Assembly: GCA_016234925.1 (NCBI GenBank)
Contig: JACRNI010000011.1
Location: 2,666-66,665, forward strand
Source: Deltaproteobacteria bacterium
GTDB lineage: Bacteria > Desulfobacterota > GWC2-55-46 > UBA9637 > GWC2-42-11
Length of the DNA stretch: 64,000 nucleotides
Direction: 5' to 3'
Shown: one piece after another, positions 5,729 to 36,524 of the stretch
Layout: every line of letters begins with the position of its first letter
Numbering within the stretch: position 1 is the first letter of the stretch
Position numbers and translations under genes: made by a program
The notes under the pieces: generated by a model
Databases searched by the model: none
Told to the model about the DNA's origin: nothing
The model's input: the letters and a program-made list of their open reading frames with translations, nothing else

Positions 5729-5892
5729 TTGACGCTCAAAAATGTCTGGATGCTGGTAGCCGCAGGCTTTAGCCTGCGAAATAACGCAACCTAAAGGTTG
5801 CGGCTTTTTAGTATGTTGAGCGCAGAAGCCGAAGCGACAACGCCCGGGGCACCCATTGCAAAGCAATGGGTCGGGGCTTTTTGAGCGTCAAC
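5729..5892 (+). repeat. MITE-like family 1 copy with nested REP-like element (5755-5806) and GGGGCACCC hairpin (5843-5877)
   Basis: TIRs TTGACGCTCAAAAATG / CTTTTTGAGCGTCAAC; core GTATGTTGAGCGCAGAAGCCGAAGCGACAAC. Confidence 0.65.
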
Positions 5893-5895
5893 TTA

Positions 5896-6444
5896 TTATA
5901 AAATAAGGACTGCAGCAGCAATAACCGTCGTATATCTGCCGTCGCTCTTTACAATCGCTGACTGCGTTATATTGGTTGTCCTGACGATTTTATCGCTGAT
6001 TCTATAAATCTCTTTTTTCTCATCCCACCCTAGATTTGTGTCAAGTTCTATACCTAACGTTGACGCAAGCATTGCTGCGGCAAGGTCTTCTGCATAATCG
6101 CCTGCTATCTTGTCTGTCATGCCAAAGGCATGATGCTCGCTTAAGTAGCCATACTGTTTTTTATCCATTGGGATTGCACACCCTACAGATGCCGCCATCA
6201 GCCTTCTCGGCTCATTGCTGCAGCATCTTGACATGACGCAGAATGTCACCTGCCCAGGAGAAATCATTTTTAACCCTTGCGCCCTTGCAATAACCTTGCA
6301 CCCCGGCGGGAATATGCTGGATACTGTCACAATATTTAGTTTTTCAATGCCCGCATCTCTTAACGCCAATTCAAATGAATGCAGTTCTTCTTTATGAGTT
6401 CCTACACCCTTTGTGAAAAACACCCTTCTGGGAACCATGTTCAT
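5896..6444 (-). CDS. pdaD: Pyruvoyl-dependent arginine decarboxylase
   Basis: 182 aa; VTVSSIFPP matches the PdaD self-cleavage Ser-Ser site (IRISSIMPP in archaeal PdaD). Confidence 0.8.
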
Positions 6445-6463
6445 TTATCAAACCCTCCTTTTT

Positions 6464-6541
6464 CAGTGTCAGTGATTAGTGTCAGTATCAGTGAATGTTT
6501 TTTATCTTTATTACTGTCACTGACACTTCCACTCTTCACTG
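6464..6541. repeat. Word-hairpin element (GTCAGTGA words) between pdaD and agmatinase
   Basis: CAGTGTCAGTGATTAGTGTCAGTATCAGTGAATG-TTTTTTATCTTTATTA-CTGTCACTGACACTTCCACTCTTCACTG. Confidence 0.5.
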
Positions 6542-7528
6542 TTTCTTTACTATATATCCCATCATCTTGTAAACAAGTTTTGCAGACATAAAATCAGGCG
6601 CAACATTTCCGGGTATCGGGCATAATTCAACAACATCAAAACCAATTATATTTTTTTTGTTGGCAATAAATTTTAACAATTCAATAACATCATACCAGCC
6701 TAGTCCGCCCGGCTCAGGCGTTCCTGTTGCAGGCATAATTGACGGGTCAAACACATCAAGGTCAATTGTAACAAAAACATCATCTGTTAAATTATTGCAT
6801 ATATCCTTTGCAGGAATGTCGTTTATAATATCTTTTGCAAAATAGGTGGAGATACCGTGATGCGTTTTTCCTTGCCCCTTGACCCCCCACCCATCCGACC
6901 CATCCTTCGGATGGGTGCCCCGATGGGTACCCGCCCTTGACCCCTTCTTTAAAAACTCTGCTTCTTCAACAGATAAACTCCTTATGCCGACTTGAACAAT
7001 GGGACAAATTTCAGAAATCCTTCTCGCAATGCACGCATGATTATATGGGCTTTCCTGATAAACATCACGCATATCAGCATGCGCATCCATTTGCAAAACA
7101 GACATATTTGGATATTTTTTCTTTAATGCCTTAACAAGACCAAACGTTATGCTGTGTTCGCCGCCTAACATCACAGGTATTTTTTTGGCATTTATTATAT
7201 GCCTTGACGCATCATAAACAATGCCAGCCATCTCCTCTGGGCCTTTTGATGTCGGCTCAAGATAAGGGAGCGTATGTATACCAGCCTTGCATGCTTCTTT
7301 GTCCAATTCCTCGTCATACAGTTCCATATGCGTTGATGCATCTATGATTGCCCTAGGACCGTTTCGCGTTCCGCTTTGATAAGATGCAGTCATGTCATAC
7401 GGCACAGGCAGGACAACAAATCTGGCATTTTTAAATGATGATATTTTTGGCTGAAGACCGCCAAAGTTGTGCGGGATGCTGAATGGATAAGGAGGCATAT
7501 TATGTTTCGTTACCATCCCAACACCCAT
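6536..7528 (-). CDS. speB: Agmatinase (arginase/ureohydrolase family)
   Basis: 330 aa; metal-binding motifs VLQMDAHADMRD, DLDVFDPS, GFDVVELCP. Contains an in-frame GC-rich repeat insertion at 6871-6947. Confidence 0.8.
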   Translation of the reverse strand: MGVGMVTKHNMPPYPFSIPHNFGGLQPKISSFKNARFVVLPVPYDMTASYQSGTRNGPRAIIDASTHMELYDEELDKEACKAGIHTLPYLEPTSKGPEEMAGIVYDASRHIINAKKIPVMLGGEHSITFGLVKALKKKYPNMSVLQMDAHADMRDVYQESPYNHACIARRISEICPIVQVGIRSLSVEEAEFLKKGSRAGTHRGTHPKDGSDGWGVKGQGKTHHGISTYFAKDIINDIPAKDICNNLTDDVFVTIDLDVFDPSIMPATGTPEPGGLGWYDVIELLKFIANKKNIIGFDVVELCPIPGNVAPDFMSAKLVYKMMGYIVKKQ

Positions 7529-8499
7529 GCAAAAATCAGCGGGGCAACAATGCTTGCGTCTGATTCAATAATAAATTTAGGGGTATCTATCCCTAATTTG
7601 CCCCAAGTGATTTTTTCATTTGGAATAGCCCCGGAATATGAGCCGTAACTCGTGGTTGAATCTGATATTTGACAGAAGTATGACCAGAAAGGAACATCCT
7701 TCCAGCCTAAATCCTGATACATCATCGGCACAACGCAAATCGGAAAATCTCCGGCAATCCCGCCGCCGATTTGGAAAAAGCCCACGCCTTTTCCTCTGGA
7801 ATTTTTCTTATACCAGTCAGCAAGCCACACCATATATTCAATCCCTGATTTTACAGTAGAAGGTTTTAAATCTCCTTTTATGCAATAAGAGGCAAAAATA
7901 TTACCCATTGTAGAGTCTTCCCATCCGGGACAGACAATCGGCAGATTTTTCTCTGCTGCTGCAATCATCCAGCTGTTTTTTGGGTCTATCTCGTAATATT
8001 GCTCCATATCTTTTGAGAGAAGCATCTTATACATAAACTCATGAGGGAAATATCTCTCCCCCTTCCCTTCCGCAGTTTTCCATTGTTTGTAAATGCGCTT
8101 TTGTATCCTGCGGAATGCCTCCTCTTCAGGGATGCATGTGTCTGTCACACGGTTATACCCTTTCTCCATCAACTCCCATTCCTGCTGCGGGGTTAAATCT
8201 CTATAATTCGGAACGCGTTTATAATTCTTATGAGCGACCAGATTCATAATATCTTCTTCCAGATTAGCCCCTGTGCATGAGATGATATGCACCTTGTCCT
8301 GCCGTATCATTTCTGCTAATGAAATTCCAATCTCAGCAGTGCTCATGGCCCCGGCAAGCGTAATCATCATCTTGCCTTTTTTGCCGAGGTGCTTATCATA
8401 TGCCTTAGCAGCATCAACCAATGCTGCGGCGTTAAAATGCAGATAGTGCCTTTCTATAAATTGTGAAACAACGCCATTCTTCTTTGATTTTTTCTTCAT
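7510..8499 (-). CDS. Deoxyhypusine synthase family protein (DHS-like; possibly homospermidine-forming)
   Basis: 329 aa; NAD-binding DHS fold motifs ISCTGANLEEDI, FFQIGGGIAGDF; overlaps agmatinase start. Confidence 0.7.
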   Translation of the reverse strand: MKKKSKKNGVVSQFIERHYLHFNAAALVDAAKAYDKHLGKKGKMMITLAGAMSTAEIGISLAEMIRQDKVHIISCTGANLEEDIMNLVAHKNYKRVPNYRDLTPQQEWELMEKGYNRVTDTCIPEEEAFRRIQKRIYKQWKTAEGKGERYFPHEFMYKMLLSKDMEQYYEIDPKNSWMIAAAEKNLPIVCPGWEDSTMGNIFASYCIKGDLKPSTVKSGIEYMVWLADWYKKNSRGKGVGFFQIGGGIAGDFPICVVPMMYQDLGWKDVPFWSYFCQISDSTTSYGSYSGAIPNEKITWGKLGIDTPKFIIESDASIVAPLIFAWVLGW

Positions 8500-9155
8500 A
8501 ATCTGTAAACCCCTTTAAATCTTTCCATATGATTCTTATAGCCTGCAACCACCCTGTTTGCAAAATCAAGAGAGACTTCTTCATCAGCATCCATCATGTC
8601 TCTGACATATGTGGGCCCGAAATTATACGCAGCAAGCGCCAGTTCTGTTTTATCAAACTTATCTTTAAGGACATTAAAATAATAAAGTCCAATCCTCACA
8701 TTCATATACGGGTCAAGAAGCGTATGTTCCCCATTCCAATCTATGTTTAAGTCGCTTGCAATATCTTTGCCAACATATTCTCTGATTTGCATGAGACCCA
8801 TTGCCCCCCTGTCAGACCTTGCCCAGTTAAAAAATGAACTCTCTTTTTCTATAAGCGCCAGGACAAACATCGGGTCCAAATTATACTTACTGCTCTCATC
8901 AATTATCACCTGAGCAAGTTTAAGTTCCTCTCCTCTGGATAAGCCTGTCTTATAATTTCTGATGGTGTCAAGGACATAGTTGTCCTCCGCCGTCTGCTCA
9001 TCAAACACAATTTTAGGCACAACTTTCTGTCCAATATCGGTTCTTCTCAATTCCGCATCTGCGGAAACGACAGCCGCAATTACAAACACAAGCAGTATGG
9101 CTAATCCCTGCTTAAAGCATACAGGGACAAGTATATTTTTAACATTGAAATTCAC
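8496..9155 (-). CDS. Lytic murein transglycosylase (SLT domain) with signal/TM anchor
   Basis: 219 aa; SLT catalytic motif ESSFFNWARSDRGAMGLMQI; N-terminal hydrophobic segment. Confidence 0.8.
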   Translation of the reverse strand: MNFNVKNILVPVCFKQGLAILLVFVIAAVVSADAELRRTDIGQKVVPKIVFDEQTAEDNYVLDTIRNYKTGLSRGEELKLAQVIIDESSKYNLDPMFVLALIEKESSFFNWARSDRGAMGLMQIREYVGKDIASDLNIDWNGEHTLLDPYMNVRIGLYYFNVLKDKFDKTELALAAYNFGPTYVRDMMDADEEVSLDFANRVVAGYKNHMERFKGVYRL

Positions 9156-9183
9156 AGCATTCTCCCTTAAAATCTTTTCTGGA

Positions 9184-9411
9184 TTTTGAGCGTAATATTA
9201 TATTCAATTTGCAAGGTTTAAGTCAAGGATTAAGGCGATTGTAGTCTGCCGATTTATCGGCGTTTTTAAACTTGTCCCTGTATGCTTTAAGCAGGGATAC
9301 GCTCAATAAATTGAGCAACTACAAGTATGTTGAGCGCAGAAGCCGCTATGTTATGAGATTCCTCGCTTCGCTCGGAACAGGCTCCGCAGATGGGCATTTT
9401 CCAGCGTGAAC
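9184..9411 (+). repeat. MITE-like family 1 copy (degenerate/composite)
   Basis: Contains the family core GTATGTTGAGCGCAGAAGCCGC and right terminus GCAGATGGGCATTTTCCAGCGTGAAC. Confidence 0.5.
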
Positions 9412-9570
9412 TAATACAAACGCATTAAATTCAGTTACATCATACGAACGCAAGAAATGGTTTTAGACAAGGCGGACGACGAGGAAAACCGCAGGCATAC
9501 TAATTGGTATGTTGAGGATTTTCCGAGGAGTCCAACGCAGTATAAAGACATTTATTGCGTTCGTATTAGA

Positions 9571-10728
9571 TTACCCTTTCATTGCCTCTATCAAAACCCT
9601 TGCAACCTCTGGTCTTGAAAACTCAACAGGCGGGATCTGTCCTGCCTTTAACATTTCCCTTACCTTTGTGCCGGATAAGGCAATATGGTGGCTGGAATCA
9701 TGCGGGCAGCTCTTGTAAGATGCCATGCTCTCGCATTTTTTGCAGTAGAATGTATGGTCAAAAAAGAGCGGTGTTATGCCGATTTCCTGAGGGTCAAACT
9801 CGTCAAATATATAATGAGCGTCAAATGAGCCGTAATAATTGCCGACCCCTGCATGGTCCCTGCCAACAATAAAATGCGTGCAGCCGTAGTTTTTTCTTAT
9901 GAGCGCATGGAATATCGCCTCTTTCGGGCCTGCATATCTCATTGCCGCTGGAAGCACAACAAGGGCAGTCCTGTCCTTTGGATAATAGTTTTCAAGCAAA
10001 ACTTCGTAACACTTCATCCTCACATCAGCAGGTATGTCATCGCCCTTTGTCTCGCCTACAATCGGATGGATCATAAGCCCGTCAACTACCTCCAATGCGC
10101 ATTTCTGAATGTATTCATGCGCCCTGTGTATCGGATTTCTTGTCTGAAAACCAACGACCCTTTTCCAGCCTTTTTCTTTGAAAAGATGCCTTGTCTCTTT
10201 AGGGTCAAGCCTGTATTTTTTAAAGTCCTCCTGCTTTACCCTGTGTATGACTGACACCTTGCCTCCAAGAAGCATGTCCCCCATTTCAAAAACCTTTGCA
10301 ACACCCGGATGCGCCGTGTCCTTTGTGCCGTAGACCTGAACAGCCTCTTTTTCTTTGTCATGGCTATGCTTTTCTTCAATGTGAAGAACTGCTAAAATCT
10401 CGCCCTGTTTATTGACAAGGCTTACTTCCTCGCCTTGTTTTAGATTCTTTGCCTCGTCTTTTGTAACTGATAAAGTAACTGGTATTGTCCAAGGAAGACC
10501 ATTTGACAGTTTCATATTGTCCATGACGTTGTGATAATCATCCTTTTTCATAAACCCTTCGAGAGGACTGAATGCGCCTATTGCAATCATCTCAAGGTCA
10601 GACACCTCTCTGTCATTGAGATGCACCTTCTTTAGTTTTTTTGTCTTTTCTAAAAGTGCTTCCCTTTCCTTTCCTTCCAAAATCCTGTTTACAAGTTTGC
10701 CGCCATGCGGCTCGATTAAACCTAGCAT
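9571..10728 (-). CDS. sat: Sulfate adenylyltransferase (ATP sulfurylase)
   Basis: 385 aa; [11 protein letters not shown] and GRDHAGVG motifs. Confidence 0.9.
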
Positions 10729-10759
10729 TATTTATGCCTCCTTTTTTGAATACAGGTAG

Positions 10760-10813
10760 AGGTATAGGTAAAGTAAAAGATATTTTCCTCTACCTATACC
10801 TGTTTTACTTATG
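10760..10813. repeat. Word-hairpin intercistronic element (arms built of GGTAGAGGTATAGGTA words around an A/T loop)
   Basis: ACAGGTAGAGGTATAGGTA ... CCTCTACCTATACCTGT imperfect inverted repeat between sat and cysH. Confidence 0.5.
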
Positions 10814-12648: not shown

Positions 12649-13260
12649 CTAAAACTTCACATATTCCTTTTTCTCAAGATAACTAATTATAGTCCTTGTT
12701 GACTCTTCAATTGACATCTTTGATGTATCAATTGTCAGTTCAGGGTTCAAAGGCTCTTCATACGGCGCTGATATGCCTGTGAATTCCTTGACCTCTCCAA
12801 GTCTTGCCTTTTTGTAAAGCCCTTTTGTATCCCTCTGTTCACAGACCTCTATCGGACACTTTACATACACCTCTATAAATTCGCCTTGTTTTTGAAGTTT
12901 TCTTGCATTATCTCTATCAGCCATGTATGGCGATATGAATGCTGTTATTGTGATGATATTTGCATCTGTAAATAGTTTTGCAACCTCGCCGATTCTGCGG
13001 ATATTTTCAGACCTATCCTCTGGCGAGAAGCCCAGATTCTTATTCAAGCCATGACGAATATTATCGCCGTCCAATATATATGCCTGATGTTTGTTTTCTA
13101 ACAAGGCATGTTCCAGTTCAACAGCAATGGTTGATTTTCCTGAGCCTGAAAGCCCTGTGAGCCATATTGTCACACCTTTCTGCTTCATCAACTTTATCCT
13201 GTCCTCTTTTGTAATCTTCCCATGATGCCATTTTATGTTTGTAGATTTTTGATTAGTCAT
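12649..13260 (-). CDS. cysC: Adenylylsulfate (APS) kinase
   Basis: 203 aa; P-loop [11 protein letters not shown] and [16 protein letters not shown] motif. Confidence 0.9.
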
Positions 13261-13302: not shown

Positions 13303-13502
13303 GTTCACGCTCAAAAATTGCCCAGATGCAAGGCGGAGCAAGGTTTCAAGCGAGGCATACTTTTGTAGTATGTTGAGCGAAGAAGCCGCAGCGACAACAT
13401 GCACAGCGAGCGTTAGCGAGCGAATAGTAATGCATTATCCCTTACATGAGAGCATCCCGCAGGGATGCTCAACGCCGCAGATGGGCATTTTTCAGCGTGA
13501 AC
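13303..13502 (+). repeat. MITE-like family 1 copy
   Basis: Terminal inverted repeats GTTCACGCTCAAAAAT / ATTTTTCAGCGTGAAC; conserved core GTATGTTGAGCGAAGAAGCCGCAGCGACAAC. Confidence 0.7.
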
Positions 13503-23343: not shown

Positions 23344-23395
23344 GTAGCCGCAACCTTTAGGTTGCGTTATTTCGCAGGCTAAAGCCTGCGGCTAC
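23344..23395. repeat. REP-like two-hairpin element in the 5' leader of the thrC-like gene
   Basis: GTAGCCGCAACCTTTAGGTTGCGTTATTTCGCAGGCTAAAGCCTGCGGCTAC. Confidence 0.65.
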
Positions 23396-23470: not shown

Positions 23471-23475
23471 CCTAA

Positions 23476-26094: not shown

Positions 26095-26104
26095 TATCTT
26101 TAAC

Positions 26105-26238
26105 TATACAGAGCGTCATAACTTTGCATACCTGCGTATTGAGGCAGGGATTAGGGTTTAGTAGTTAGGGGTTAGTAAAAAAACTAATCCCTAATCCCTA
26201 ACACCTGTATTCTAACTTTGTTCTGACGCTCTGTATGC
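26105..26238 (+). repeat. MITE-like family 2 copy (TIR ATACAGAGCGTCA / TGACGCTCTGTAT) with internal GGGATTAGGG word hairpin
   Basis: ATACAGAGCGTCATAACTTTGCATACCTGCGT ... TTGTTCTGACGCTCTGTATGC. Confidence 0.7.
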
Positions 26239-26246
26239 TGTTCTAC

Positions 26247-27095
26247 TTATGACGCTATATATAATAACCCGCTTATTGCATCCCTTACCATCCCAATATC
26301 AACCCCTGTTCCAACGCAGTAACCCTGCGGCCTTTTATTAACTATGCCCAGCACCGGCAGTGGATATGCGTCCTGAATCCCGCTTGTCAAATCTCTCTCA
26401 CATGCAACAGCAACAATCACATCAGGTCTTTTTTCATAAACCTTTCTCCTTGCAATTGTGCCGCCTGTCGAGATGTATATGTCTATGCCGTATTCGTCCA
26501 TTATGCCAAGCAAATCCTTTATCTCGCACTTTCCGCATTCCTTGCAGTTCCTTATATCCTGCGTAACCTTGATTTTGCAGTCTACATACTGTATGCAGTG
26601 CGGCATGAGTATCATAATCTTTTCAGGTTTAACCAACTTGCCCATGCCTCTGACAAGTTGATTGTTGATTTCTATAAATGACTGCTCTATCTTGATTTTT
26701 GGTATCTTTAAGAGCCCGCCGAGCATTATCATCAAAGGCAGAAAGAATTTTATCAAGATGCCTCTGAATTTGTATGAATGAAATATGTCTTTGCCATTTG
26801 CTACGGCAATGGTTAATGCAAATGCGCCGACAACAAGAAATATGATTGCTGATAAAACAGCGATGCCGAAGATAAGCGGAAGTTTAGGATGTATATTGCC
26901 GAGCCCGACAGACGGGATATACCAGAATAAAAAACCGGCAACTAAAACTATGAAGGCGCAAAATGCAAGGAGACCGATGAATATCCCTTTTGCAGGACGA
27001 TAAGGGATGCTCTCTGCGCTGCCCGCCCACTCTGCCTCTTTGTCAATTAAGGATTTATTTTTTGCCATATTTAATACCACATTATCAGACGGCAA
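26247..27095 (-). CDS. DUF116-like membrane protein with C-terminal cysteine-rich domain
   Basis: 282 aa; N-terminal TM helices, then CIQYVDC ... CKECGKC ... VAVACE cysteine pattern. Confidence 0.45.
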   Translation of the reverse strand: MPSDNVVLNMAKNKSLIDKEAEWAGSAESIPYRPAKGIFIGLLAFCAFIVLVAGFLFWYIPSVGLGNIHPKLPLIFGIAVLSAIIFLVVGAFALTIAVANGKDIFHSYKFRGILIKFFLPLMIMLGGLLKIPKIKIEQSFIEINNQLVRGMGKLVKPEKIMILMPHCIQYVDCKIKVTQDIRNCKECGKCEIKDLLGIMDEYGIDIYISTGGTIARRKVYEKRPDVIVAVACERDLTSGIQDAYPLPVLGIVNKRPQGYCVGTGVDIGMVRDAISGLLYIAS

Positions 27096-27097
27096 AG

Positions 27098-27152
27098 TAG
27101 GCAGCCGCAGGCTTTAGCCTGCGAAATAACGCAACCTAAAGGTTGCGGCTAC
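27098..27152. repeat. REP-like two-hairpin element (opposite orientation)
   Basis: GTAGGCAGCCGCAGGCTTTAGCCTGCGAAATAACGCAACCTAAAGGTTGCGGCTAC. Confidence 0.65.
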
Positions 27153-27166: not shown

Positions 27167-28075
27167 TCAATTAAGGATTTGCCCTTTGACAATTCTATAC
27201 CCCTTTATGAATTCAGATGCGCTCATTCTGTTTTTATTCTCCATCTGCAATTCAGTGATAAGCAATGTGCCTCTGCCTGCCGCCACAAAAATTCCCTCGG
27301 TTGATATATTTATTATGGTTCCGGGTTCTTCCTTGACTCCTGCTTCAACCTCTGCCTTGAATATCTTTATCTGCTTGCCTTCCCATCTCGTATATGCGCA
27401 TGGCAACGGATTCAAACCTCGTATAAGATTTTTAATCTCCTCCGCCTTCAGCGTCCAGTCTATGCGGCCGTCTTCCTTTTTTATCATCGGCGCATATGTT
27501 GCGAGAGAATCATCCTGTTCAATCGGGGCAATTGTGCCATTTCTTAGAGCATCCAGAGTCTTTATCAGAAGATTTGCTCCAACCTCTTTTAATTTATCAT
27601 GTAAAGTCCCTGCAGTATCATCATTAGAAATCTTAACGGACTCTTTTAAAAGCATTTTACCCGTGTCCATGCCCTCGTCCATCAACATTGTTGTTATGCC
27701 TGTTTCCTTTTCTCCATTTATTATCGCCCAATTTATCGGCGCGGCCCCGCGGTATTTTGGCAGAAGCGAGGCATGGACATTTATACAGCCGTATTTAGGA
27801 ATTTCAAGCACAGACTTGGGGAGGATTTTACCATATGCAGCGACAACTATCATATCAGGCGCTATTTCTTTTAGTTTTGCGGCAAAATCGCTGTTCAATC
27901 TTTCAGGCTGAAAAACAGGGATATTATGAGCCAATGCCAGAACCCTTACAGGAGGAGGCGTTAAAACCATGCCCCTGCCCTTTGGCTTGTCAGGCTGGGT
28001 TGCAACAGCGCAAACCTCATATGGTGATTCAATCAATAATTTAAGGCTTGGCGCGGCAAAATCAGGGGTGCCCAT
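27167..28075 (-). CDS. fmt: Methionyl-tRNA formyltransferase
   Basis: Conserved KIVFMGTPDFAAPSL start region and formyltransferase fold. The called ORF (to 28210) has an N-terminal extension that is translated MITE sequence, so I trimmed the start to the ATG at 28073-28075. Confidence 0.85.
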   Translation of the reverse strand: MGTPDFAAPSLKLLIESPYEVCAVATQPDKPKGRGMVLTPPPVRVLALAHNIPVFQPERLNSDFAAKLKEIAPDMIVVAAYGKILPKSVLEIPKYGCINVHASLLPKYRGAAPINWAIINGEKETGITTMLMDEGMDTGKMLLKESVKISNDDTAGTLHDKLKEVGANLLIKTLDALRNGTIAPIEQDDSLATYAPMIKKEDGRIDWTLKAEEIKNLIRGLNPLPCAYTRWEGKQIKIFKAEVEAGVKEEPGTIINISTEGIFVAAGRGTLLITELQMENKNRMSASEFIKGYRIVKGQILN

Positions 28076-28086
28076 AAAAACAATTT

Positions 28087-28171
28087 TATACAGAGCGTCA
28101 TAACTTCGCATACCTGCGTTGCTCCTCGCTTCGTCGCGCCTTGGTCTGCTTTGTTCTGACGCTCTGTATGC
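28087..28171 (+). repeat. MITE-like family 2 copy (short form)
   Basis: ATACAGAGCGTCATAACTTCGCATACCTGCGTTGCTCCTCGCTTCGTCGCGCC...TTGTTCTGACGCTCTGTATGC. Confidence 0.7.
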
Positions 28172-28254
28172 GGATTTATTTATGCCGTTGTTTATAAATT
28201 TCTTATCCAATGCAACCCTTTAATTTGTTGATACTGTAAAATACCTTTAACACA

Positions 28255-28449
28255 GTTCACGCTCAAAAATCGCCCAGATGCAAGGCTGTAGAAACATGGC
28301 TCGTAGAAACACGGCTTCAGCCGTGTTAACCTTAATTTTAACAGGTCTAAAGACCTGTTTCTACGCTGGTATGTTGAGCGTAGAAGCCGCAGCGACAACG
28401 CACGGGGCACCCAGCCGAAGGCTGGGTCGGGGTATTTTTCAGCGTGAAC
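28255..28449 (+). repeat. MITE-like family 1 copy with extra internal hairpins
   Basis: GTTCACGCTCAAAAATCGCCCAGATGCAAGG ... GGTATGTTGAGCGTAGAAGCCGCAGCGACAAC ... GGTATTTTTCAGCGTGAAC. Confidence 0.7.
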
Positions 28450-28453: not shown

Positions 28454-28990
28454 CTATAACCTTTTTCTTTCTTCCTCTATTGCCTTTAATATCTTCTTTT
28501 TTATAAATTCCCTCTTTAATCTGCCAAGCCTGTCTATGAACAGCATACCGTTCAAATGATCAATCTCATGCTGCAAGGCGATTGCAAAAAGACCTTCTGC
28601 ATATATCTCGATGCCCTTGCCATTCTTGTCAAGCCCTCTGACCTTAACGCTGGCAAACCTTTTTACATCTGCGTTAAAACCAGGGACGCTCAAACATCCT
28701 TCCTCGTATTTTATTTTGCCGTCCTGCTCAATAATCTCAGGGTTTATAATTGCAATCAGGTTTTCGCCCTTTTTATAATCTTTTTTTTCATCCTCATCAG
28801 GCACATCAAGGACAACAACCCTTTTGTCAACACCAACCTGATTTGCGGCAAGACCAATGCCCCTTGCAAAATACATGGTCTCTGTCATATCATCTATAAG
28901 TTTTTCTATGTCAGCGCCGATAATCTCTACATGCTGAGTCTTCTTTTTTAAAAACGGGTCAGGATATTTTAATATCTCAAATATTGCCAT
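28454..28990 (-). CDS. def: Peptide deformylase
   Basis: 178 aa; GIGLAANQVG, EGCLSVPG, HEIDHLNG motifs. Confidence 0.9.
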   Translation of the reverse strand: MAIFEILKYPDPFLKKKTQHVEIIGADIEKLIDDMTETMYFARGIGLAANQVGVDKRVVVLDVPDEDEKKDYKKGENLIAIINPEIIEQDGKIKYEEGCLSVPGFNADVKRFASVKVRGLDKNGKGIEIYAEGLFAIALQHEIDHLNGMLFIDRLGRLKREFIKKKILKAIEEERKRL

Positions 28991-29003: not shown

Positions 29004-31295
29004 TCAAACCGTGGTTACAGGGTCAACATCAACAATAAGTTCAATGCCTGATATTTTATTCTGCTTAAATTCAGCGATGATGCCTTGTGCAAATGTATGG
29101 AGTGTCTTTACATTCTTTCCCTTAACAAGCATATGCCATCTGTATTTGCCTTTTAACAAGGAAAGGAATGCAGATACAGGTCCAAGCAAGATTATATCCT
29201 TAAATCCTTTTATATGTTTGTCCGCTATTCTCTTTAAAACATTTGCCCCGTCTATAACCTTTTTTTCTTTATTGCCTTCTATGCGGAGGTTTATGAGCCT
29301 GCAAAACGGGGGGTAAAAAACCTCTTTCCTTATCTCAATCTCTTGTTTAAAAAAACCTATATAGTCATGTCTCAAGATGCCTTTAAAACAGTAATGTTCG
29401 GGGTTAAATGTCTGAACAACCACATTTCCAGCCGCATCTCCTCTTCCCGCCCTTCCAGCAGCCTGCGTTATAATCTGAAATGTCCTTTCAGCGCTTCTAA
29501 AATCAGGGATATTCATTAAGGCATCAGAAGAAACTATGCCCATAACGCTTACATTTGGAAAGTGATGCCCTTTCGCAACCATCTGCGTGCCGACAAGCAT
29601 ATCTGCCTCGCCGCTTTCCACTGCGCTTAATATCCTTTCATGCGCTCTTTTTTTGCGGGTCGTATCCCTATCCATCCTTGCGATTCGTATCTTTGGGAAC
29701 AGCCTTCTTGCCTCTTCTTCAACCTTTTCTGTTCCAATGCCAATATCTTTCACATTATATCCATTGCACTTTGGGCATAAATCTGGAACAGGCATTGACA
29801 TATCGCAGTAATGGCACTTTAATATATTTTTTGCCTTGTGAAACGTCATTGACACGCTGCAGTTAAGACACTTGAAAACATGACCGCAGTCTTTGCAGAT
29901 TAGAAAATTTGAAAATCCCCTCCTGTTCAAAAAAAGTATTGCCTGCTGTTTTTTATCAAGGGCATTGTCCAAAAGATGTTTGAGTTTTTCTGAAATAATT
30001 TCACCATGCTTTTGACCCCTGCTTACTGCCTGCAGGGGCAGGCTTTTGACTTTTGACCCCTGATTACTACCTTCAGGGGCATGCTTTTGACTTTCATTTC
30101 TCATATCCACAATCTCTACATCCGGCATCGGCCTCTCTTCAATCCTTTTATCCAGACTGATTAACCTTATCTTGCCCTGCTGCGCATTATAAAATGTCTC
30201 AATGGAAGGTGTTGCAGAACCAAGCACAACAACCGCATTAAGCATCTTTGCAAGCATAATGCCCGCATCCCTTGCATTATATCTAACACCATCCTCTTGT
30301 TTGTAAGATGTTTCATGCTCTTCATCAACTATGATGATTCCAATGTCTTTTAAAGGCGCAAAAAGCGCAGACCTTGCGCCGACAACAATGTCAATGCTGC
30401 CGTCCCTTATCTTTTTCCACTGGTCATATCTCTCGCCGTCTGAAAGTCCGCTGTGCATAACAGCGACCCTTTCTAAAAATCTTGATGCTAGATGCTGGAT
30501 AAGCCAATATGTCAGTGAAATCTCTGGAACAAGGACTATTGCCTTTTTGCCCATATTGAGACATTCTTCTATTGCCTTTAAATAAACAAGGGTCTTGCCG
30601 CTGCCTGTAACACCGTGCAGGAGGAATGGAGAAAATTTTCCGCTTTGTATTGCCTCTGTTATAAGAGAAATAGCAGATGCCTGCTCTTTGTTTGGCTTAT
30701 GAAAGACCGGGGCTGAAGGTTTTTGAAGGGCTACTGGGTTTCTCTCAACATCTTTTTCAAATACTTTGATAATGCCTTTGTCTTTGAGTTTTTTGATGGC
30801 AGAATCAATATTGCCAAGTTCCTTTCTTAAAACGGATAAAGAGACATCGGTTTTATCTGATAAAAATAAAACAATCTTTGCCTGAACAGGCGCGGTCTTT
30901 TTCAATTGGCTGGCAATGTCTTCTGAAATATTCTGCGCAAGACAGGCAAACCTTTCTTTTTTATTTTTCATATTTAATCTAGGCGGATGCGTGAGTTTTA
31001 AAATCTCTCCAAGCGGGGAAAAATAATACGACGCCATCCATCGGTAAAACTTGAGCCTTTCCTCGTCAAATATCGGCTCATCATCAAAGACATCTATTAC
31101 TTCTTTGACACCTTTCAAATCTGTCTTTTCCTGAAATTCCACTGCATATGCAGTAATAACCCTTTTGCCAAACGGCACAAGGAGCATTTTGCCTGTACTT
31201 ACACGGCTTAATAAAGATTCTGGAATTTTGTATGTAAATTCTTTATCTATCGGGATTGGGATGGCAACCTTAATGAATGGATGATTTGCAGGCAT
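29004..31295 (-). CDS. priA: Primosomal protein N' (PriA helicase)
   Basis: 763 aa; Walker A LLHGVTGSGKT, DEEH box IIIVDEEHE, Zn-binding cysteine cluster. In-frame repeat insertion at 30013-30100. Confidence 0.9.
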   Translation of the reverse strand: MPANHPFIKVAIPIPIDKEFTYKIPESLLSRVSTGKMLLVPFGKRVITAYAVEFQEKTDLKGVKEVIDVFDDEPIFDEERLKFYRWMASYYFSPLGEILKLTHPPRLNMKNKKERFACLAQNISEDIASQLKKTAPVQAKIVLFLSDKTDVSLSVLRKELGNIDSAIKKLKDKGIIKVFEKDVERNPVALQKPSAPVFHKPNKEQASAISLITEAIQSGKFSPFLLHGVTGSGKTLVYLKAIEECLNMGKKAIVLVPEISLTYWLIQHLASRFLERVAVMHSGLSDGERYDQWKKIRDGSIDIVVGARSALFAPLKDIGIIIVDEEHETSYKQEDGVRYNARDAGIMLAKMLNAVVVLGSATPSIETFYNAQQGKIRLISLDKRIEERPMPDVEIVDMRNESQKHAPEGSNQGSKVKSLPLQAVSRGQKHGEIISEKLKHLLDNALDKKQQAILFLNRRGFSNFLICKDCGHVFKCLNCSVSMTFHKAKNILKCHYCDMSMPVPDLCPKCNGYNVKDIGIGTEKVEEEARRLFPKIRIARMDRDTTRKKRAHERILSAVESGEADMLVGTQMVAKGHHFPNVSVMGIVSSDALMNIPDFRSAERTFQIITQAAGRAGRGDAAGNVVVQTFNPEHYCFKGILRHDYIGFFKQEIEIRKEVFYPPFCRLINLRIEGNKEKKVIDGANVLKRIADKHIKGFKDIILLGPVSAFLSLLKGKYRWHMLVKGKNVKTLHTFAQGIIAEFKQNKISGIELIVDVDPVTTV

Positions 31296-32622: not shown

Positions 32623-34266
32623 ATGAAACCTTATATTATTTTAATACTGCTAGTTGCAATTGCATATGCAAATTCTCTCCAGAATTCATTTGTATGGGAT
32701 GATACCGACATTATTGTAAATAATCCAAAGATTAATCTTTCAATAAAAGAAATACCGTCTGTATTTACAACATCTCTATGGGGAATGGCAGGTTTTAGCG
32801 AACGGCAGGACTATTATAGACCAGTCATATTCTTACTTTATGTCTTAAACTACAAAATCTGGGGGTTAAATCCATTTGGCTTTCATCTTATCCATATCTT
32901 AATTCATCTAATCAATGCAGTGATTCTTTACAGGATCGGTTTAATCCTCTTTAATGATAACCTTATATCACTCATTGGAGCATCCGTATTTGCAGTTCAC
33001 CCTGTTAATAATGAGCCAGTAGAGTGGGTTTCAACAGGTGATGTTGTATTCGGCTTTTTCATAATCCTTTCCATTTATTTCTTTTTAAAAGAAAAAAGAT
33101 ACCTTTCATGGATTACATTCTTTCTAGCGCTTCTTTCAAAAGAAGGAGCAATAATGCTGCCATTTGCATTGATAATTTTTTCAATATGCAGAAATGGATT
33201 TAAAAAAGGGGTGATTGCAATAACACCCTATCTGGCGCTTTCAGGCATATATCTTTTTATCAGGATGAATGTTGTAGATATTGTTTTAGTTTTAGGCGCA
33301 GATATAAAACAGCCTATATTCATACAAGTCATTACAATGGCAGTTGCAGCATTTGATTATATAAAACTCCTTATAATTCCATATCCTTTAAGCCCGTTTT
33401 ATCCTGCGAAATGGCATACATCTGTATTTGAGCCAAAGGTTATACTTGCAATAATAGTTCTAATATCAATCTCATTCCTTGCCTTTAAGATTAGAAAAGA
33501 CAGGGTAATGCTTTTTTTACTTATATCCCCATTTATTATGCTTGCGCCTGTTATATGGATGGTCAATATGTTTATGGCTGGAGAGGATAATGTATACATT
33601 GCTGAGAGGTATTTATATGTGCCGGCAATGTTTTTTTCTATATTTGCGCCTGCTCTTCTTGTAAAGATTTTTAATGATAGGGCAAGAAGGTATCTTAATA
33701 TCGGATGGATATTGATTATAATTATATTCACATATACTACGGCATCTTCAAGCGCAGCATGGAAAAACGATATTACACTTTTCAAAAAAATTATAGAGAA
33801 ATCACCAGAAGCCGCTTTTGCCCATAATAATCTTGGGAATGTCTATGCTGATGAAGGCAGGCTTGATGAGGCGATAAAGGAATATTTGACAGCGTTAAAA
33901 ATTAAACCTTACTATGCAAGTGTCCATAATAACCTAGGAACCGCATATTATGAAAAAGGTAATGTTGATATGGCTATAAAGGAATACATGATGGCATTGA
34001 AAATCAAACCTGACTATGCAGACGCCCATAACAACCTTGGCGCTGCATATTATGAACAAGGCAAGATTGATGAGGCTATAAAAGAATATCTTGCTTCGTT
34101 AAAAGTTAGTTCTGATTTTGCGCCTGCCCATTATAACCTTGGCCGCACTTATTGGAAAAAAGGATTAAAGCAAGATGCCAGAAAAGAATTTGAAATGGTT
34201 TTAAAATTAAAGCCTGATTTTGCCCCAGCCAAAAAAGCCCTTGAATCGCTTGATAAAGACAAATAA
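32623..34266 (+). CDS. Polytopic membrane protein with C-terminal TPR repeats (TMTC/PMT-like glycosyltransferase-39-type architecture)
   Basis: 547 aa; about 11 TM helices then four TPR units (AHNNLGNVYADEGRLDEAIKEYLTALKIKPYYA ...). Confidence 0.65.
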   Translation: MKPYIILILLVAIAYANSLQNSFVWDDTDIIVNNPKINLSIKEIPSVFTTSLWGMAGFSERQDYYRPVIFLLYVLNYKIWGLNPFGFHLIHILIHLINAVILYRIGLILFNDNLISLIGASVFAVHPVNNEPVEWVSTGDVVFGFFIILSIYFFLKEKRYLSWITFFLALLSKEGAIMLPFALIIFSICRNGFKKGVIAITPYLALSGIYLFIRMNVVDIVLVLGADIKQPIFIQVITMAVAAFDYIKLLIIPYPLSPFYPAKWHTSVFEPKVILAIIVLISISFLAFKIRKDRVMLFLLISPFIMLAPVIWMVNMFMAGEDNVYIAERYLYVPAMFFSIFAPALLVKIFNDRARRYLNIGWILIIIIFTYTTASSSAAWKNDITLFKKIIEKSPEAAFAHNNLGNVYADEGRLDEAIKEYLTALKIKPYYASVHNNLGTAYYEKGNVDMAIKEYMMALKIKPDYADAHNNLGAAYYEQGKIDEAIKEYLASLKVSSDFAPAHYNLGRTYWKKGLKQDARKEFEMVLKLKPDFAPAKKALESLDKDK

Positions 34267-34300: not shown

Positions 34301-34464
34301 CAAACGCAAGATTTGAGCCAAAGACAAGGAAAAGATGGTTGGACAAAACAGACGCATACCCCTTAATGTATGTGAGTCTTTGGACAGACAGATTTGACGC
34401 AGTATTTGGACAAAGATTGCGTTTGCCAAAAAATGCAACTGCATTTTTTTGGGATAAAAGATGC

Positions 34465-35805
34465 TCAAATCTTCTTCAATATCTCCCTTGCAGCAACAAT
34501 GCCTGATGCCGCTGCCTGAATAATCCCCCGTGTTATGCCCGCGCCGTCGCCTGCTGCAAACAGATTCTTTAATTCTGTCTCAAGACAATTTGTTAGTTTA
34601 AGACGCATTGAATAAAATTTTACCTCAATGCCGTATAAAAGCGTTGATTCCGAATTTATGCCGGGGGCAATTCTATCAAGCGCCTCAAGCATCTCCAGTA
34701 TGTCAACTATATAACGATAAGGCAGGGCAAAGGAAAGGTCGCCCGGCGCGGCATGTTTCAATGTCGGCTGAACAAGCCCGTTTTTAATCCGTTCAAATGT
34801 TGACCTCCTTCCCTGAAGCAAGTCGCCAAGCCTCTGGACAATAATCCCCTCGCCCAGCAGATTTGCCAGTTTTGCAATATACTGTCCATATGCAATCGGC
34901 TCATGGAAAGGCTCTGTAAATGTTGTTGAGACAAGGATTGCAAAGTTTGTATTCTCTGTTTTTTTAACAGAAAAACTGTGTCCATTGACTGTGCAGAAAT
35001 CCTTGTGCTGCTCCTTCACAACAACGCCGTATGGATTCATGCAGAATGTCCTTACATGGTCATTAAATCTTTTTGAATAAAATGTGAGTTTAGCCTCATG
35101 CACAATATCTGTGACAGACTTTAAAACTTCAGCAGGAACTTCAACCCTGACACCTATATCAACAGGATTATTTTCCGTTGACAACCCAAGTCTTTTAGCC
35201 TCTTCATTCAGCCAGTAAGAGCCGCTCCTGCCGGGCGCAAGGATTACATACTTCGCATAAAAATCATCCCCGTCTTTTGTCCTGATTCCAGCAGCCTTTT
35301 CATTATCTTTTAATATTTCTAAAACATCGGTATCAAATAAAAGGTCAATACTTTTATCCAGATCCTTCCTGATATTTTCCAGCACTTTAAAACATCTGTC
35401 TGTGCCGAGATGTCTGATTCTAAATGGTATGAGTTTTAAGCCGTTTTTTCCTGCAATACCCTCAAGCCTTTTTACCTCTCCTTCATTTGTGCCGTGCAGT
35501 TCTTTTGGCGCGCCGTATCTTAAAAATATTTCATCAACATACTGGATTAGTCTATCCAGTTCAGCGCCGTCTATGAAATCATTCAGAAAACCGCCGACAT
35601 CTGAAGACAGATTAAGTTTGCCGTCGCTGAATGTACCAGCCCCGCCCCATCCGCAAAAGACCTGTGAAGGTTCTCTGTCAGGCAAATCCCTGCCTTTTTC
35701 AATCAAAAGGATTTTTAGATTTTTCCCTGAAGATAGAAATTCAATCGCAGCGAATATCCCTGCAGGACCAGCGCCGACAATTATGATGTCATAGGTGTTT
35801 GGCAT
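34465..35805 (-). CDS. FAD-dependent oxidoreductase (COG2509-like)
   Basis: 446 aa; N-terminal dinucleotide fingerprint DIIIVGAGPAGIFAA and C-terminal FAD motif GDGAGITRG. Confidence 0.6.
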   Translation of the reverse strand: MPNTYDIIIVGAGPAGIFAAIEFLSSGKNLKILLIEKGRDLPDREPSQVFCGWGGAGTFSDGKLNLSSDVGGFLNDFIDGAELDRLIQYVDEIFLRYGAPKELHGTNEGEVKRLEGIAGKNGLKLIPFRIRHLGTDRCFKVLENIRKDLDKSIDLLFDTDVLEILKDNEKAAGIRTKDGDDFYAKYVILAPGRSGSYWLNEEAKRLGLSTENNPVDIGVRVEVPAEVLKSVTDIVHEAKLTFYSKRFNDHVRTFCMNPYGVVVKEQHKDFCTVNGHSFSVKKTENTNFAILVSTTFTEPFHEPIAYGQYIAKLANLLGEGIIVQRLGDLLQGRRSTFERIKNGLVQPTLKHAAPGDLSFALPYRYIVDILEMLEALDRIAPGINSESTLLYGIEVKFYSMRLKLTNCLETELKNLFAAGDGAGITRGIIQAAASGIVAAREILKKI

Positions 35806-35948
35806 TTGGGGAGTGAAATTGTAGTTGCCTAAACCTGACCTGTCGTCAGGACAGGTTTATTGGCACAGCAAAAGCCGCCGATAAATCGGCAGGCTACAAA
35901 TAAAACGCAACCATAAAGGTTGCGGCTGCCATTTACTCATAATTTGGG

Positions 35949-36380
35949 TTAATTTCTCTTTGCAGTTTCTTTTGAAATTTTATCCAGTATCCCATTTATA
36001 AATGCGCCTGAATCCTTTGCGCCGAATTTTTTGCCTAGTTCAACTGCCTCGTCTATGGCAACCTTGTGCGGAATATCCTCGCAGTAAAGCATTTCAAAGA
36101 TGGACAATCTCAAGATATTCCTATCCACCAATGCCATGCGCTTTAAAGACCAATTTTCTGATGACGCCTCAATAAGCGAATCTATTTTATCCTTGTATTC
36201 GCAGACACCCTTGACAAGTTTATGCGCATAATCCTTTACATCCTTTGATAAAGAGGCAGATAGATGCGCTGCAACAGCATCCTCTATATCATCATCCCTT
36301 ACATCAAGTTGGTAAAGAACCTGCAAAGATATTTCTCTTGCGCTTGTTCTGCTGCCCATAAAATTAAACTCAAGATCCAA
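35949..36380 (-). CDS. nusB: Transcription antitermination factor NusB
   Basis: 143 aa; AREISLQVLYQLD signature. Confidence 0.85.
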   Translation of the reverse strand: MDLEFNFMGSRTSAREISLQVLYQLDVRDDDIEDAVAAHLSASLSKDVKDYAHKLVKGVCEYKDKIDSLIEASSENWSLKRMALVDRNILRLSIFEMLYCEDIPHKVAIDEAVELGKKFGAKDSGAFINGILDKISKETAKRN

Positions 36381-36400
36381 AACTAATATATTTATAATAG

Positions 36401-36524
36401 ATTCACGCTCAAAAATTGCACAGATGCAAGGCGGAGCAAGGCTTCAAGCGAGGCATACTTTGTAGTATGTTGAGCGTAGAAGCCGCAGCGACAACGCAGC
36501 AGATGGGTATTTTTCAGCGTGAAT
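36401..36524 (+). repeat. MITE-like family 1 copy (minimal form)
   Basis: ATTCACGCTCAAAAATTGCACAGATGCAAGGCGGAGCAAGGCTTCAAGCGAGGCATACTTTGTAGTATGTTGAGCGTAGAAGCCGCAGCGACAACGCAGCAGATGGGTATTTTTCAGCGTGAAT; ends at ribH stop codon. Confidence 0.7.

Follow-up and report, generated by a model that had tools for sequence, protein, structure and literature searches.

A family of palindromic intergenic repeats set antisense to operons and flush with stop codons in uncultured groundwater bacteria

We examined a window of 64,000 nucleotides from a Deltaproteobacteria bacterium (GenBank assembly GCA_016234925.1, contig JACRNI010000011.1) in which several housekeeping operons on the minus strand (def-fmt, ribH-nusB, usp-cysC, and sat) have copies of a repeat between their genes. 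The repeat core, GTATGTTGAGCGNAGAAGCCG, occurs five times, always on the + strand (at 5811, 9325, 13368, 28369, and 36465), where shuffled sequences lead one to expect none, and the terminal 16-mer and its inverse gave 9 matches in the window compared with 0.9 expected. An earlier, sequence-only reading had described five copies in a common orientation, antisense to minus-strand operons. All five are real, but a divergent sixth copy at 9442-9568 had been missed; all six copies lie on the + strand between minus-strand housekeeping genes, as that reading held for its five. Its boundaries for copies 3, 4, and 5 stand, whereas copy 1 now spans 5728-5892 and the start of copy 2, placed at 9184, was wrong: that position falls in a stray right-arm-like fragment, and copy 2 has no left terminus. 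The copies and their neighbors are as follows.

5728-5892, + strand: copy 1, with fully paired termini GTTGACGCTCAAAAAT and CTTTTTGAGCGTCAAC; a double hairpin (5755-5805) stands in place of the left core half, followed by the right core (5811-5841) and a GGGGCACCC hairpin (5845-5881, + strand)
5896-6444, minus strand: pyruvoyl arginine decarboxylase gene, its stop 3 nt from the right end of copy 1
9183-9197, + strand: stray right-arm-like fragment GGATTTTGAGCGTAA, as read from the sequence
~9230-9411, + strand: copy 2, left arm absent and AAGGCG retained; in order, a GTAGTCTGCCGATTTATCGGCG module, further hairpins, the right core (9325-9345), a GATTCCTCGCTTCGCTCGGAAC module, and the right arm ATTTTCCAGCGTGAAC
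9442-9568, + strand: copy 6, divergent, found with a covariance model (41.6 bits, E = 3.5e-10); terminal stem ATACGAACGC/GCGTTCGTAT, helix P2 GGAAAA/UUUUCC replacing GGCUUC/GAAGCC, paired stem reaching to 9566
9571-10728, minus strand: ATP sulfurylase gene, its stop 4 nt from the right end of copy 6
12649-13260, minus strand: cysC, downstream of copy 3
13303-13502, + strand: copy 3, left half and core as in the basic form; a 70-nt insert occupies 13401-13470 in the right half
13506: stop of usp, 3 nt from the right end of copy 3
27167-28210 (as called), minus strand: fmt
28255-28449, + strand: copy 4, hairpin modules in the left half and a GGGGCACCC hairpin in the right half
28454-28990, minus strand: def, its stop 4 nt from the right end of copy 4
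35949-36380, minus strand: nusB
36401-36524, + strand: copy 5, the basic 124-nt form
36524-36991, minus strand: ribH, whose stop codon TAA overlaps the last base of copy 5

Copy 2 stands in tandem behind copy 6. The termini had been taken as common to all copies, which is so only in part: copy 1 ends in GTTGAC/GTCAAC and copy 5 in ATTCAC/GTGAAT, and the stem of copy 6 differs.

There is good support for regarding the repeat as a family of palindromic elements that is specific to a lineage and dispersed over intergenic sites. It is hosted by uncultured bacteria of groundwater, namely, GWC2_42_11 (GTDB phylum GWC2-55-46) and MAGs labelled Deltaproteobacteria, Nitrospirae, and Thermodesulfobacteriota. 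A census of related groundwater MAGs and metagenomes yielded 137 unique copies at 89 independent sites, and about 25 copies with the exact core were found within one MAG. The basic form is ∼125 nt long and the elements range from 124 to 200 nt, the longer ones carrying nested hairpin modules. Because loop length varies, no reading frame is preserved. Rfam covariance models run on the window at gathering thresholds matched only a SAM riboswitch and left the element unmatched, and an Rfam E-value scan with copy 5 returned a single noise match.

The element forms a rod-like hairpin, in which a near-invariant, asymmetric core of ∼85 nt is closed by a fast-changing but paired terminal stem. On the + strand alignment, 96.0% of cells are standard pairs, compared with 31 to 43% in slid-partner controls. 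Both sides have changed in 24 of the 37 pairs, none of 500 shuffles reached the observed score, and compensatory changes are present in every helix. At least five unrelated types of terminal stem close the same core, their pairing kept by compensatory changes, and inner helices have been rebuilt in divergent copies (GGCUUC/GAAGCC to GGAAAA/UUUUCC and GGGAUUGCA/UGCAAGCCC to GGGAUUAAA/UUUAAGCCC). The terminal stem closes on both strands in all complete window copies, and the fold of copy 5 had a z-score of -5.3 on the minus strand and -6.7 on the + strand. Of the two, the + strand (antisense to the operons) folds better: standard pairs fall to 89.6% on the minus strand, and the + strand has two fixed G·U pairs and is more stable by 1.5 to 10 kcal/mol in every window copy. 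Outside five positions, wobble intermediates are equally common on both strands (66 versus 72). This better fold of the + strand is not what would be predicted for a structure selected in mRNA.

Among orthologous pairs, the inner core is 92 to 99% identical, compared with 39 to 60% at four-fold codon sites, and across species its conservation matches that of the first and second codon positions of adjacent genes. Homogenization does not explain this conservation, because the few free core positions do differ among the copies of one genome. The copies are old. Different species share many of them at orthologous positions, and purifying selection appears to act on each one. Together, the compensatory changes and the conservation of the core strongly indicate selection acting on a folded single strand.

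The family had been called MITE-like, with modular nested inserts. The inserts are real, and the element is a dispersed repeat that, like a MITE, is non-coding, small, and present in many copies; it is not a MITE in the strict sense, for its termini vary and neither a target duplication nor a transposase was found. Comparison of the flanks at 74 left ends and 63 right ends revealed no repeated bases of the kind that a target-site duplication would leave. An A precedes the left end (position -1) in 69% of cases, and T and A follow the right end at +1 and +2 in 59% and 56%, the latter preference being due to stop codons. A search for a cognate transposase, which the sequence-only reading had proposed, found neither one nor a parent IS in the window or among 777 neighboring ORFs, and no multi-copy transposase among the latter; the few solo termini found were not attached to a transposase gene. 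The IS200/IS605 TnpA partner that it had suggested does not fit the anatomy: the ends lack separate subterminal hairpins, and no tetranucleotide is fixed in the flanks. Moreover, the termini are the most variable part of the element and the core is nearly invariant, the reverse of an ordinary miniature transposon. Subfamilies carry end bases of their own (for instance, AAA before GTTGAC), which indicates that the unit was copied or spread with defined ends in the past. Empty orthologous sites were seen only between genomes ∼80% identical.

The shared orientation of the window copies had been put at a 1-in-16 coincidence, and a wider census of orientation had been called for. In the related MAGs and metagenomes the bias held and was far stronger: among the 89 independent sites, both neighbors were antisense to the element at 61 and both were sense at 9 (two-sided binomial P of ∼1e-10). 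In 73 of 79 copies, the stop codon of the upstream (antisense) gene falls between -15 and +5 nt of the element's right end. Often the element itself supplies that stop, as the TAG in GTGAA[C|TA] or as a TGA inside GTTCACGCTGA, and a spacer of usually 15 to 48 nt or more precedes the next start codon downstream. In sense-oriented copies, the right end adjoins genuine start codons with no Shine-Dalgarno sequence between (6 nt from glmS, MCGIVGY; 8 nt from a CbiM-like gene, MHIPEGY; and 0 nt at locus L009), which suggests that the landing position of the right end follows a rule at the level of DNA. The neighboring genes def, fmt, ribH, nusB, cysC, sat, and glmS stand in conserved synteny.

Our best reading, which we put forward tentatively, is that the element is an old, selectively retained palindrome resembling ERIC or BIME, co-transcribed as an RNA rod that begins at the stop codon, only one orientation being tolerated or useful. 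At ∼87% of the co-directional sites, it would lie inside an operon and be transcribed as the reverse complement of its + orientation. Co-transcription is expected because the neighbors in the window are classical operon pairs (def-fmt and ribH-nusB). At the RNA level, we infer each of the steps as follows. The rod would start at, or a few bases from, the stop codon of the upstream gene and may act on the polycistronic mRNA, as has been shown for ERIC in Yersinia and proposed for NEMIS/Correia elements in Neisseria. Its basal duplex of ∼20 bp is a plausible substrate for RNase III or a block to 3' exonucleases. Recognition by RNase III as substrates has been proposed for the RNA stem-loops of NEMIS, and the effect of ERIC on mRNA depends on orientation and requires that a ribosome reach the hairpin (review, PMC2229807). 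A ribosome that terminates translation at the foot of the rod would have to open the stem, so that processing or decay would be tied to translation of the upstream gene. Orientation would be maintained by selection against the opposite one, since a flipped element would bring into the mRNA a more stable fold as well as terminator-like modules of hairpin and T run. It counts against this reading that no clear terminator is present on either strand of the element in its basic form. After their past spread as defined units, the elements would have changed mainly by in situ swaps of modules and compensatory changes in stems.

A more ambitious proposal, possible but doubtful in our judgment, is that the element, rather than a tolerated parasite, is a host-selected, strand-specific structured module at dozens of operon junctions per genome across a candidate phylum, acting either as a stop-codon cis-RNA or as a one-way barrier on the antisense strand, with its invariant asymmetric core binding a putative trans-acting factor. 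The cis-RNA form, equally doubtful, would be a new class in which the termination of translation is linked either to processing of the mRNA or to how the following cistron is expressed.

The likeness to ERIC/IRU, the 127-bp enterobacterial repetitive intergenic consensus, is extensive: both are imperfect palindromes of about 125 nt whose 5' and 3' ends pair into a long rod, both lie between genes, ERIC being co-transcribed with them and the present element expected to be, both include longer variants through insertions at fixed internal sites, and both include old, orthologous copies. However, a blastn search (word size 11) of 5,426 complete E. coli genomes gave only a chance match (E = 4), the TA target duplication of ERIC is absent here, and the terminal stems vary between copies while the core is fixed. 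The present element also has an extreme orientation bias and sits flush with stop codons, and we know of no report of either for ERIC. Correia/NEMIS elements share long terminal inverted repeats, a basal duplex of ∼20 bp in co-transcribed mRNA, and ends that can overlap gene ends; unlike the present element, with its variable termini and no duplication, NEMIS occur in both orientations and have a TA duplication, an IHF site, and termini conserved over 26 bp. REP/BIME and REPIN-RAYT systems are likewise mosaics of small hairpins at the 3' ends of genes, with long vertical persistence and arms kept paired by compensatory changes. In REPINs, however, it is the arms that are conserved, as 20- to 40-mers carrying a GTAG or CGTC tag, and the loop that varies freely; the reverse holds here, and no RAYT (Y1 transposase) gene was seen in the element loci.

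Small palindromic repeats such as REP, ERIC, and Correia are usually regarded as junk or as occasional regulators, and selection on their individual copies has been hard to demonstrate. In this family, the inverted conservation pattern, purifying selection across species, and strict placement rules (flush with the stop codon and ∼87% of copies facing one way) make per-copy selection testable. If the function is real, the element would provide an uncultured phylum with a widespread means of post-transcriptional or strand-specific control and be a clean case of a mobile hairpin that has become a host component.

It is also conceivable, if unlikely, that the bias follows replication. The element would then move or persist as a folded single DNA strand, through fork-oriented insertion or preferential loss from one strand, and its match with gene direction would be secondary to the co-orientation of most genes with replication; transcription and replication are co-directional at nearly all loci. 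GC3 skew in the window separates leading genes (+0.16) from lagging genes (about -0.06), and it hints that replication direction is also relevant, because about half of the 11 sense-oriented copies lie among genes with lagging-type skew, which make up only ∼8% of the window. The lack of target duplication, the retention of structure while termini vary (as in sites recognized as folded single strands), and the adjoining of the right end to an ORF border regardless of ORF direction would fit as well. So would the comparison of loci L101 and L168 from strains 95% identical, where only the core was lost or gained, at the 8-bp direct repeat GCAGATGC. Against this explanation, clear leading-type skew at five or more sense-oriented sites makes these exceptions to a replication rule too, several antisense sites have lagging-type skew, and the flush placement at stop codons is left unexplained.

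Two known single-strand systems are also among the closest to the element. Palindrome-associated elements derived from IS200/IS605 likewise lack target duplication and have a strong orientation bias, possibly following replication. The better-folding + strand of the present element is on the leading-strand template, the reverse of the arrangement of IS200/IS605 top strands; further, the arms pair only with each other, no flank position is fixed, and no separate subterminal hairpins, TnpA, or other Y1/HUH gene was found in the loci. Integron attC sites likewise conserve structure while stem sequence varies, have one strand that folds better, and directly follow a stop codon, always oriented the same way with respect to the ORF upstream; the strand of attC that folds is, in sedentary integrons, the one on the leading-strand template. 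The present element, in contrast, lacks R''/R' boxes (RYYYAAC...GTTRRRY), its termini being GTTNAC...GTNAAC with GTT/AAC outermost, and it is found among syntenic housekeeping operons rather than in cassette arrays or near an integrase. If the bias does follow replication, the family would be a new example of single-strand-dependent genome dynamics beyond IS200/IS605 and integrons.

We also give little weight to the possibility that the + strand is the working one, whether it yields a stable antisense RNA, terminates or insulates against antisense transcription in one direction, or acts as a hairpin in the template DNA. The excess of standard pairs on the + strand agrees with it, although the covariance-model alignment is itself biased towards that strand. 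The two fixed G·U pairs, which vary only to A-U and G-C, and the lower free energy in all six window copies point the same way, but wobble intermediates are strand symmetric outside a few positions. The nested modules GCCGATTTATCGGCG plus T run and CGCAACC..GGTTGCG plus T run are terminator-like on the + strand only, and the A5/T5 tract around the inner stem is sequence invariant in the two commonest stem types, as in bidirectional terminators. However, the outer stem past the T tract covaries too, which a terminator would not need. No conserved promoter was found within or upstream of the element, the left flanks being unrelated 5' regions of host genes, and ∼10% of copies are sense oriented.

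It seems quite improbable that the element is a terminator-plus-promoter cassette that splits operons, the rod ending the upstream transcript and an outward TTGAGC serving as the -35 box of the next gene. The A5, hairpin, T5 layout on both strands, the start at the stop codon, the 15 to 48 nt or more usually left ahead of the next start codon, and a TTGAGC-16-TATATT adjoining copy 5 would suit such a cassette. However, -10-like hexamers at the right spacing from TTGAGC occurred at 6 of 43 sites, no more than at control offsets, and the T5 tract lies within the terminal stem on both strands. Moreover, def-fmt and ribH-nusB are each normally one transcription unit. Finally, an ordinary decaying MITE with random orientation, whose bias in the window arose by chance, would account for the size, copy number, inverted termini, and intergenic location, but is scarcely credible given the 61 versus 9 independent sites, the missing target duplication, termini more variable than the interior, and a core conserved across species like non-synonymous codon positions.

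The nested modules recur both within and outside the copies. The double hairpin of copy 1 is repeated at 27100-27150 with 98% identity, GGGGCACCC hairpins are found in copies 1 and 4, and hairpin modules have been swapped in situ, even between strains. The terminator-like hairpins of the + strand also close the ribH-nusB operon (35875-35924), where their orientation is sense.

Six copies of the element lie in the window. In its basic form, without nested modules, the element is a hairpin-forming repeat of ~125 nt in which a near-invariant core is closed by a variable paired terminal stem. Its left and right ends are given here as on the + strand of the window, and sense and antisense refer to the neighboring genes. 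The copies are as follows:

5728-5892, +, copy 1, with termini GTTGAC/GTCAAC
~9230-9411, +, copy 2, truncated and without a left arm
13303-13502, +, copy 3
28255-28449, +, copy 4
36401-36524, +, copy 5, with termini ATTCAC/GTGAAT
9442-9568, +, copy 6, divergent, closed by another stem (ATACGAACGC/GCGTTCGTAT) and with different bases in one rebuilt inner helix

Five of these had been described from the sequence as sharing termini and a core around variable centers, and direct reading of the five stretches bore this out. The core GTATGTTGAGCGNAGAAGCCG has 5 matches in the window, every time on the + strand, with a chance expectation of 0, and the terminal 16-mer together with its inverse has 9 matches versus 0.9 expected. 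The terminal repeat is real, but the termini are not identical, as copies 1 and 5 illustrate. Copy 2 had been placed at 9184-9411; its right end was correct, but the proposed start is a short fragment resembling another copy's right arm. The count of five missed copy 6, which emerged (41.6 bits; E = 3.5e-10) when a covariance model trained on 27 basic copies was run unfiltered over the whole window.

The window has a G+C content of ~40% and a strongly negative GC skew, with nearly all genes on the minus strand. The neighbors of the copies are housekeeping genes and classical operon pairs, and the following adjoin a copy:

def and fmt, peptide deformylase and formyltransferase
ribH and nusB, lumazine synthase and NusB
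usp and cysC, universal stress protein and APS kinase
sat, ATP sulfurylase
a pyruvoyl arginine decarboxylase gene

Because the operons around the copies are on the minus strand, all six copies are antisense to transcription, the orientation that the sequence-only reading had noticed and suspected of bias. A census of copies elsewhere confirmed a bias that is strong, although not absolute. The profile search returned 203 copies, of which 137 were unique after removal of duplicates, and clustering by flanks reduced these to 89 independent sites. Genes were called by a simple longest-ORF rule, so that stops are exact and starts are upper bounds on upstream extent. The census of 89 included the following independent sites:

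61 sites, both neighbors antisense
9 sites, both neighbors sense
6 sites, convergent neighbors
7 sites, divergent neighbors, some of them ORF-calling artifacts

The split of 61 versus 9 has a two-sided binomial P value of ~1e-10. Scanning one genome per species for the exact pattern yielded 54 loci, mostly in GWC2_42_11 and related groundwater MAGs. The MAG 'Deltaproteobacteria bacterium GWC2_42_11,' assigned to the GTDB phylum GWC2-55-46 (PMC9751292), carries ~25 exact-core copies. A metagenome scan added at least 120 loci from aquifer samples, with the Rifle and Hainich aquifers as sources, and the nearest DNA to the window in the genome and metagenome collections was ~79 to 81% identical. 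No copy was found in the viral contigs, phage records, or plasmid records searched, and carriage by phage or plasmid was rejected on these grounds. The element matched no known RNA family, and none of its sequences was found printed in a paper in the literature search.

The orientation bias is accompanied by a second rule, unseen in the sequence-only reading, which concerns stop codons. The right end abuts the stop codon of the right-hand gene: 73 of 79 copies have the stop -15 to +5 nt from that end. Many copies finish on the G of a TAG stop, and at others the gene enters the element and terminates at the TGA within GTTCACGCTGA. TAG terminates 32% of the genes ending at an element versus 21% of the other genes at the same loci. 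At the left end, a spacer of usually 15 to 48 nt or more separates the element from the next start codon. Sense-oriented copies are rare; their right end precedes genuine start codons by 0 to 8 nt, and no Shine-Dalgarno sequence intervenes. Examples are the starts of glmS (MCGIVGY), a CbiM-like gene (MHIPEGY), and a gene for an Mth938-like protein. Sense-oriented copies with the right end near starts, all from loci elsewhere, are as follows:

L163, 3919-4040
L067, 1379-1504
L009, 4294-4413
L101, 4507-4630

Since the right end also meets the starts of sense genes, it lines up with a coding border regardless of gene direction, and this placement looks like a property of the DNA event and not of later selection alone. 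At two element-bearing loci (L101 and L107), AGGAG stands directly against the left end, so that the Shine-Dalgarno sequence and the AUG may flank a looped-out hairpin. Two other readings were discarded: a small ORF (ATG to TGA) that spans copy 5 in the mRNA sense is not conserved, being broken elsewhere in the alignment by loop-length variation and missing ATGs, and a hybrid promoter with TTGAGC was not supported by any enrichment at suitable spacing.

The consensus fold is a rod. In 111 copies aligned to the model, an alignment that was fitted to the model and favors structure, 96.0% of cells held standard pairs, compared with 31 to 43% when partners were slid by 1 to 3 columns. Pairs were changed on both sides in 24 of 37 cases (shuffled mean, 11.5), and 0 of 500 shuffles matched the observed score. 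Divergent copies have whole inner helices swapped for other complementary sequences, which supports the fold independently. We lean tentatively toward the + strand as the folding strand: it has 96.0% standard pairs versus 89.6% on the - strand, it has two fixed G·U pairs whose sole variants are A-U and G-C, and it is more stable by 1.5 to 10 kcal/mol in every window copy. Counts of G·U versus A·C were set aside as a guide to the strand, because the + excess was due to five positions and to an alignment fitted to the + model; outside those positions, wobble-type intermediates were equal between strands (66 versus 72). The core also holds TTGAGCGNAGAA, which resembles the right arm TTCAGCGTGAAC in the same orientation (36470-36484 versus 36509-36524 in the window); each element therefore has three related sites, to which one protein might bind.

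Orthologous sites are numerous between species with only 75 to 90% identity in the flanking genes. In six orthologous pairs in which both copies are basic, the inner core was 92 to 100% identical, the level of first and second codon positions, and four-fold degenerate sites of the adjacent gene were 39 to 85% identical (39 to 60% in the four most diverged pairs). Copies from a single genome vary at the few free core positions (in GWC2_42_11, one site is A, C, or T), so gene conversion does not account for the constancy of the remainder. Purifying selection appears to act on each copy.

The label MITE-like, given to the family earlier, fails in its strict sense. Element flanks carry no target duplication, and a TA or TAA duplication was rejected because it is present in just a handful of copies. 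The search for a cognate transposase found none in the 20 window ORFs scanned or in 777 ORFs around copies elsewhere. The conservation pattern is inverted, with a fixed interior and differing termini: across the 27 basic copies, from many species, 58 interior columns are invariant, and at least five unrelated stems (GTTSAYGCTCAAAAAT, GACGGCAAAGTAAAAAG, two ending in AAGGRTT, and ATACGAACGC) close one core. Subfamilies carry their own extra end bases, such as the AAA preceding GTTGAC-type copies, which indicates that the unit was once copied with defined ends. The left spacer is not a degenerate duplicate of the left arm, as its score equaled that of shuffled flanks (5.66 versus 5.28). Homology to ERIC was dismissed for lack of sequence similarity, and an integron reading is contradicted by gene content and end sequences. 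The element is of a known kind, the small palindromic intergenic repeats. It fails the defining tests of MITE, ERIC, REP/REPIN, IS200-type elements, and attC, and it differs further by its inverted conservation, per-copy purifying selection, and two strict placement rules. We are confident that it represents a lineage-wide family of structure-constrained palindromic intergenic elements that are old, retained under selection, mosaic in build, and located at gene ends with strong polarity.

The mosaic build is seen at one orthologous site in five genomes, which has three forms of the element:

form 1, the basic element
form 2, the basic element plus a CCCCCGA...TCGGGGG hairpin
form 3, form 2 plus a second hairpin at the apex

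Forms 2 and 3 separate strains with flanks at least 99.6% identical. Two modules, GCCGATTTATCGGCG and CGCAACC..GGTTGCG, score as terminator-like on the + strand, the only strand on which a T run follows each of them; these hairpins are also present, in the sense direction, where the ribH-nusB operon ends. Two loci from strains ~95% identical (L101, 1340-1440; L168, 254-273) differ by the presence of the core only, which is bounded exactly by the 8-bp direct repeat GCAGATGC; the coreless copy is a plain hairpin with GCAGATGC in its loop. Insertion of the core into preexisting CAGATG-loop hairpins was rejected, as L168 is the one empty hairpin and 1.3 Mb held no family of them, and deletion by slippage between the direct repeats is therefore the simpler reading.

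The operons that contain the element are normally transcribed as one unit, so the one certain RNA is the operon-sense one, and in it the rod would begin at the stop codon. We tentatively favor a role at the mRNA level, where the element would affect processing or stability or would uncouple cistrons. Among worked examples the nearest are ERIC, in which the arrival of a ribosome at the hairpin is believed to uncover an RNase E site and orientation matters critically, and Correia/NEMIS, whose basal duplex is proposed as an RNase III substrate (PMC2229807). Selection would disfavor the opposite orientation, since it would give the mRNA the stronger fold as well as modules resembling terminators. 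Two observations fit this mRNA-level model least well: the superior folding of the + strand and the rule, at the level of DNA, for the right end. One main rival, less probable, is that the + strand itself functions, whether as an antisense RNA, as a terminator specific to antisense transcription, or as a hairpin in the template strand.

The other main rival, of equal probability, is that a folded single strand inserts or survives in a manner linked to replication. GC3 skew, a noisy measure compared here on small numbers, is +0.16 in minus-strand genes of the window versus approximately -0.06 in the two long plus-strand genes. Of the sense-oriented copies, about half are surrounded by genes of lagging-type GC3 skew and the other half by clear leading-type genes, and several antisense copies also lie in lagging-type regions. 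These data suggest that replication direction contributes to the orientation bias; as a means of separating transcription from replication, GC3 skew was suggestive only.

Other repeats and signals were noted in the window:

5755-5805, 27100-27150, 23343-23393, 19045-19075, and 35906-35936, a double-hairpin unit (CGCAGGCTTTAGCCTGCG / CGCAACCTAAAGGTTGCG), free after genes, where a T run follows and it scores as terminator-like, and also nested inside copy 1
26101-26268, 28083-28201, and 55579-55748, a second repeat family of ~120 to 170 nt with inverted ends (ATACAGAGCGTCA... / ...TGACGCTCTGTAT), three copies in one direction, one filling the rest of the def-fmt gap beside copy 4
9197-9226, -, a near-consensus promoter-like TTGACT-18-TATAAT (11/12) in degenerate DNA left of copy 2, facing a transglycosylase gene (8496-9155)
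10745-10800, -, an empty site that contains an unrelated quasi-palindrome, with GGTATAGG/CCTATACC and GGTAGAGG/CCTCTACC in permuted order, and whose counterpart in L012 (a locus elsewhere) bears an element
23475-23596, -, a SAM (S-box) riboswitch (80 bits) upstream of a 417-aa ORF (22060-23313)
33819-34124, tandem 102-nt repeats, 66 to 72% identical, in a TPR-repeat protein gene (32623-34266)
39029-39551, a second set of tandem 102-nt repeats, likewise 66 to 72% identical, within an ORF (38979-39698)
30009-30090, a 41-nt unit present twice, with hairpin GCCTGCAGGGGCAGGC, inside a 763-aa ORF
48876-48971, a 48-nt unit present twice at 98% identity, inside a 666-aa ORF

The second repeat family matches R1, a model of the element, weakly (17 bits) and on the opposite strand, and a distant relationship to the element is possible.
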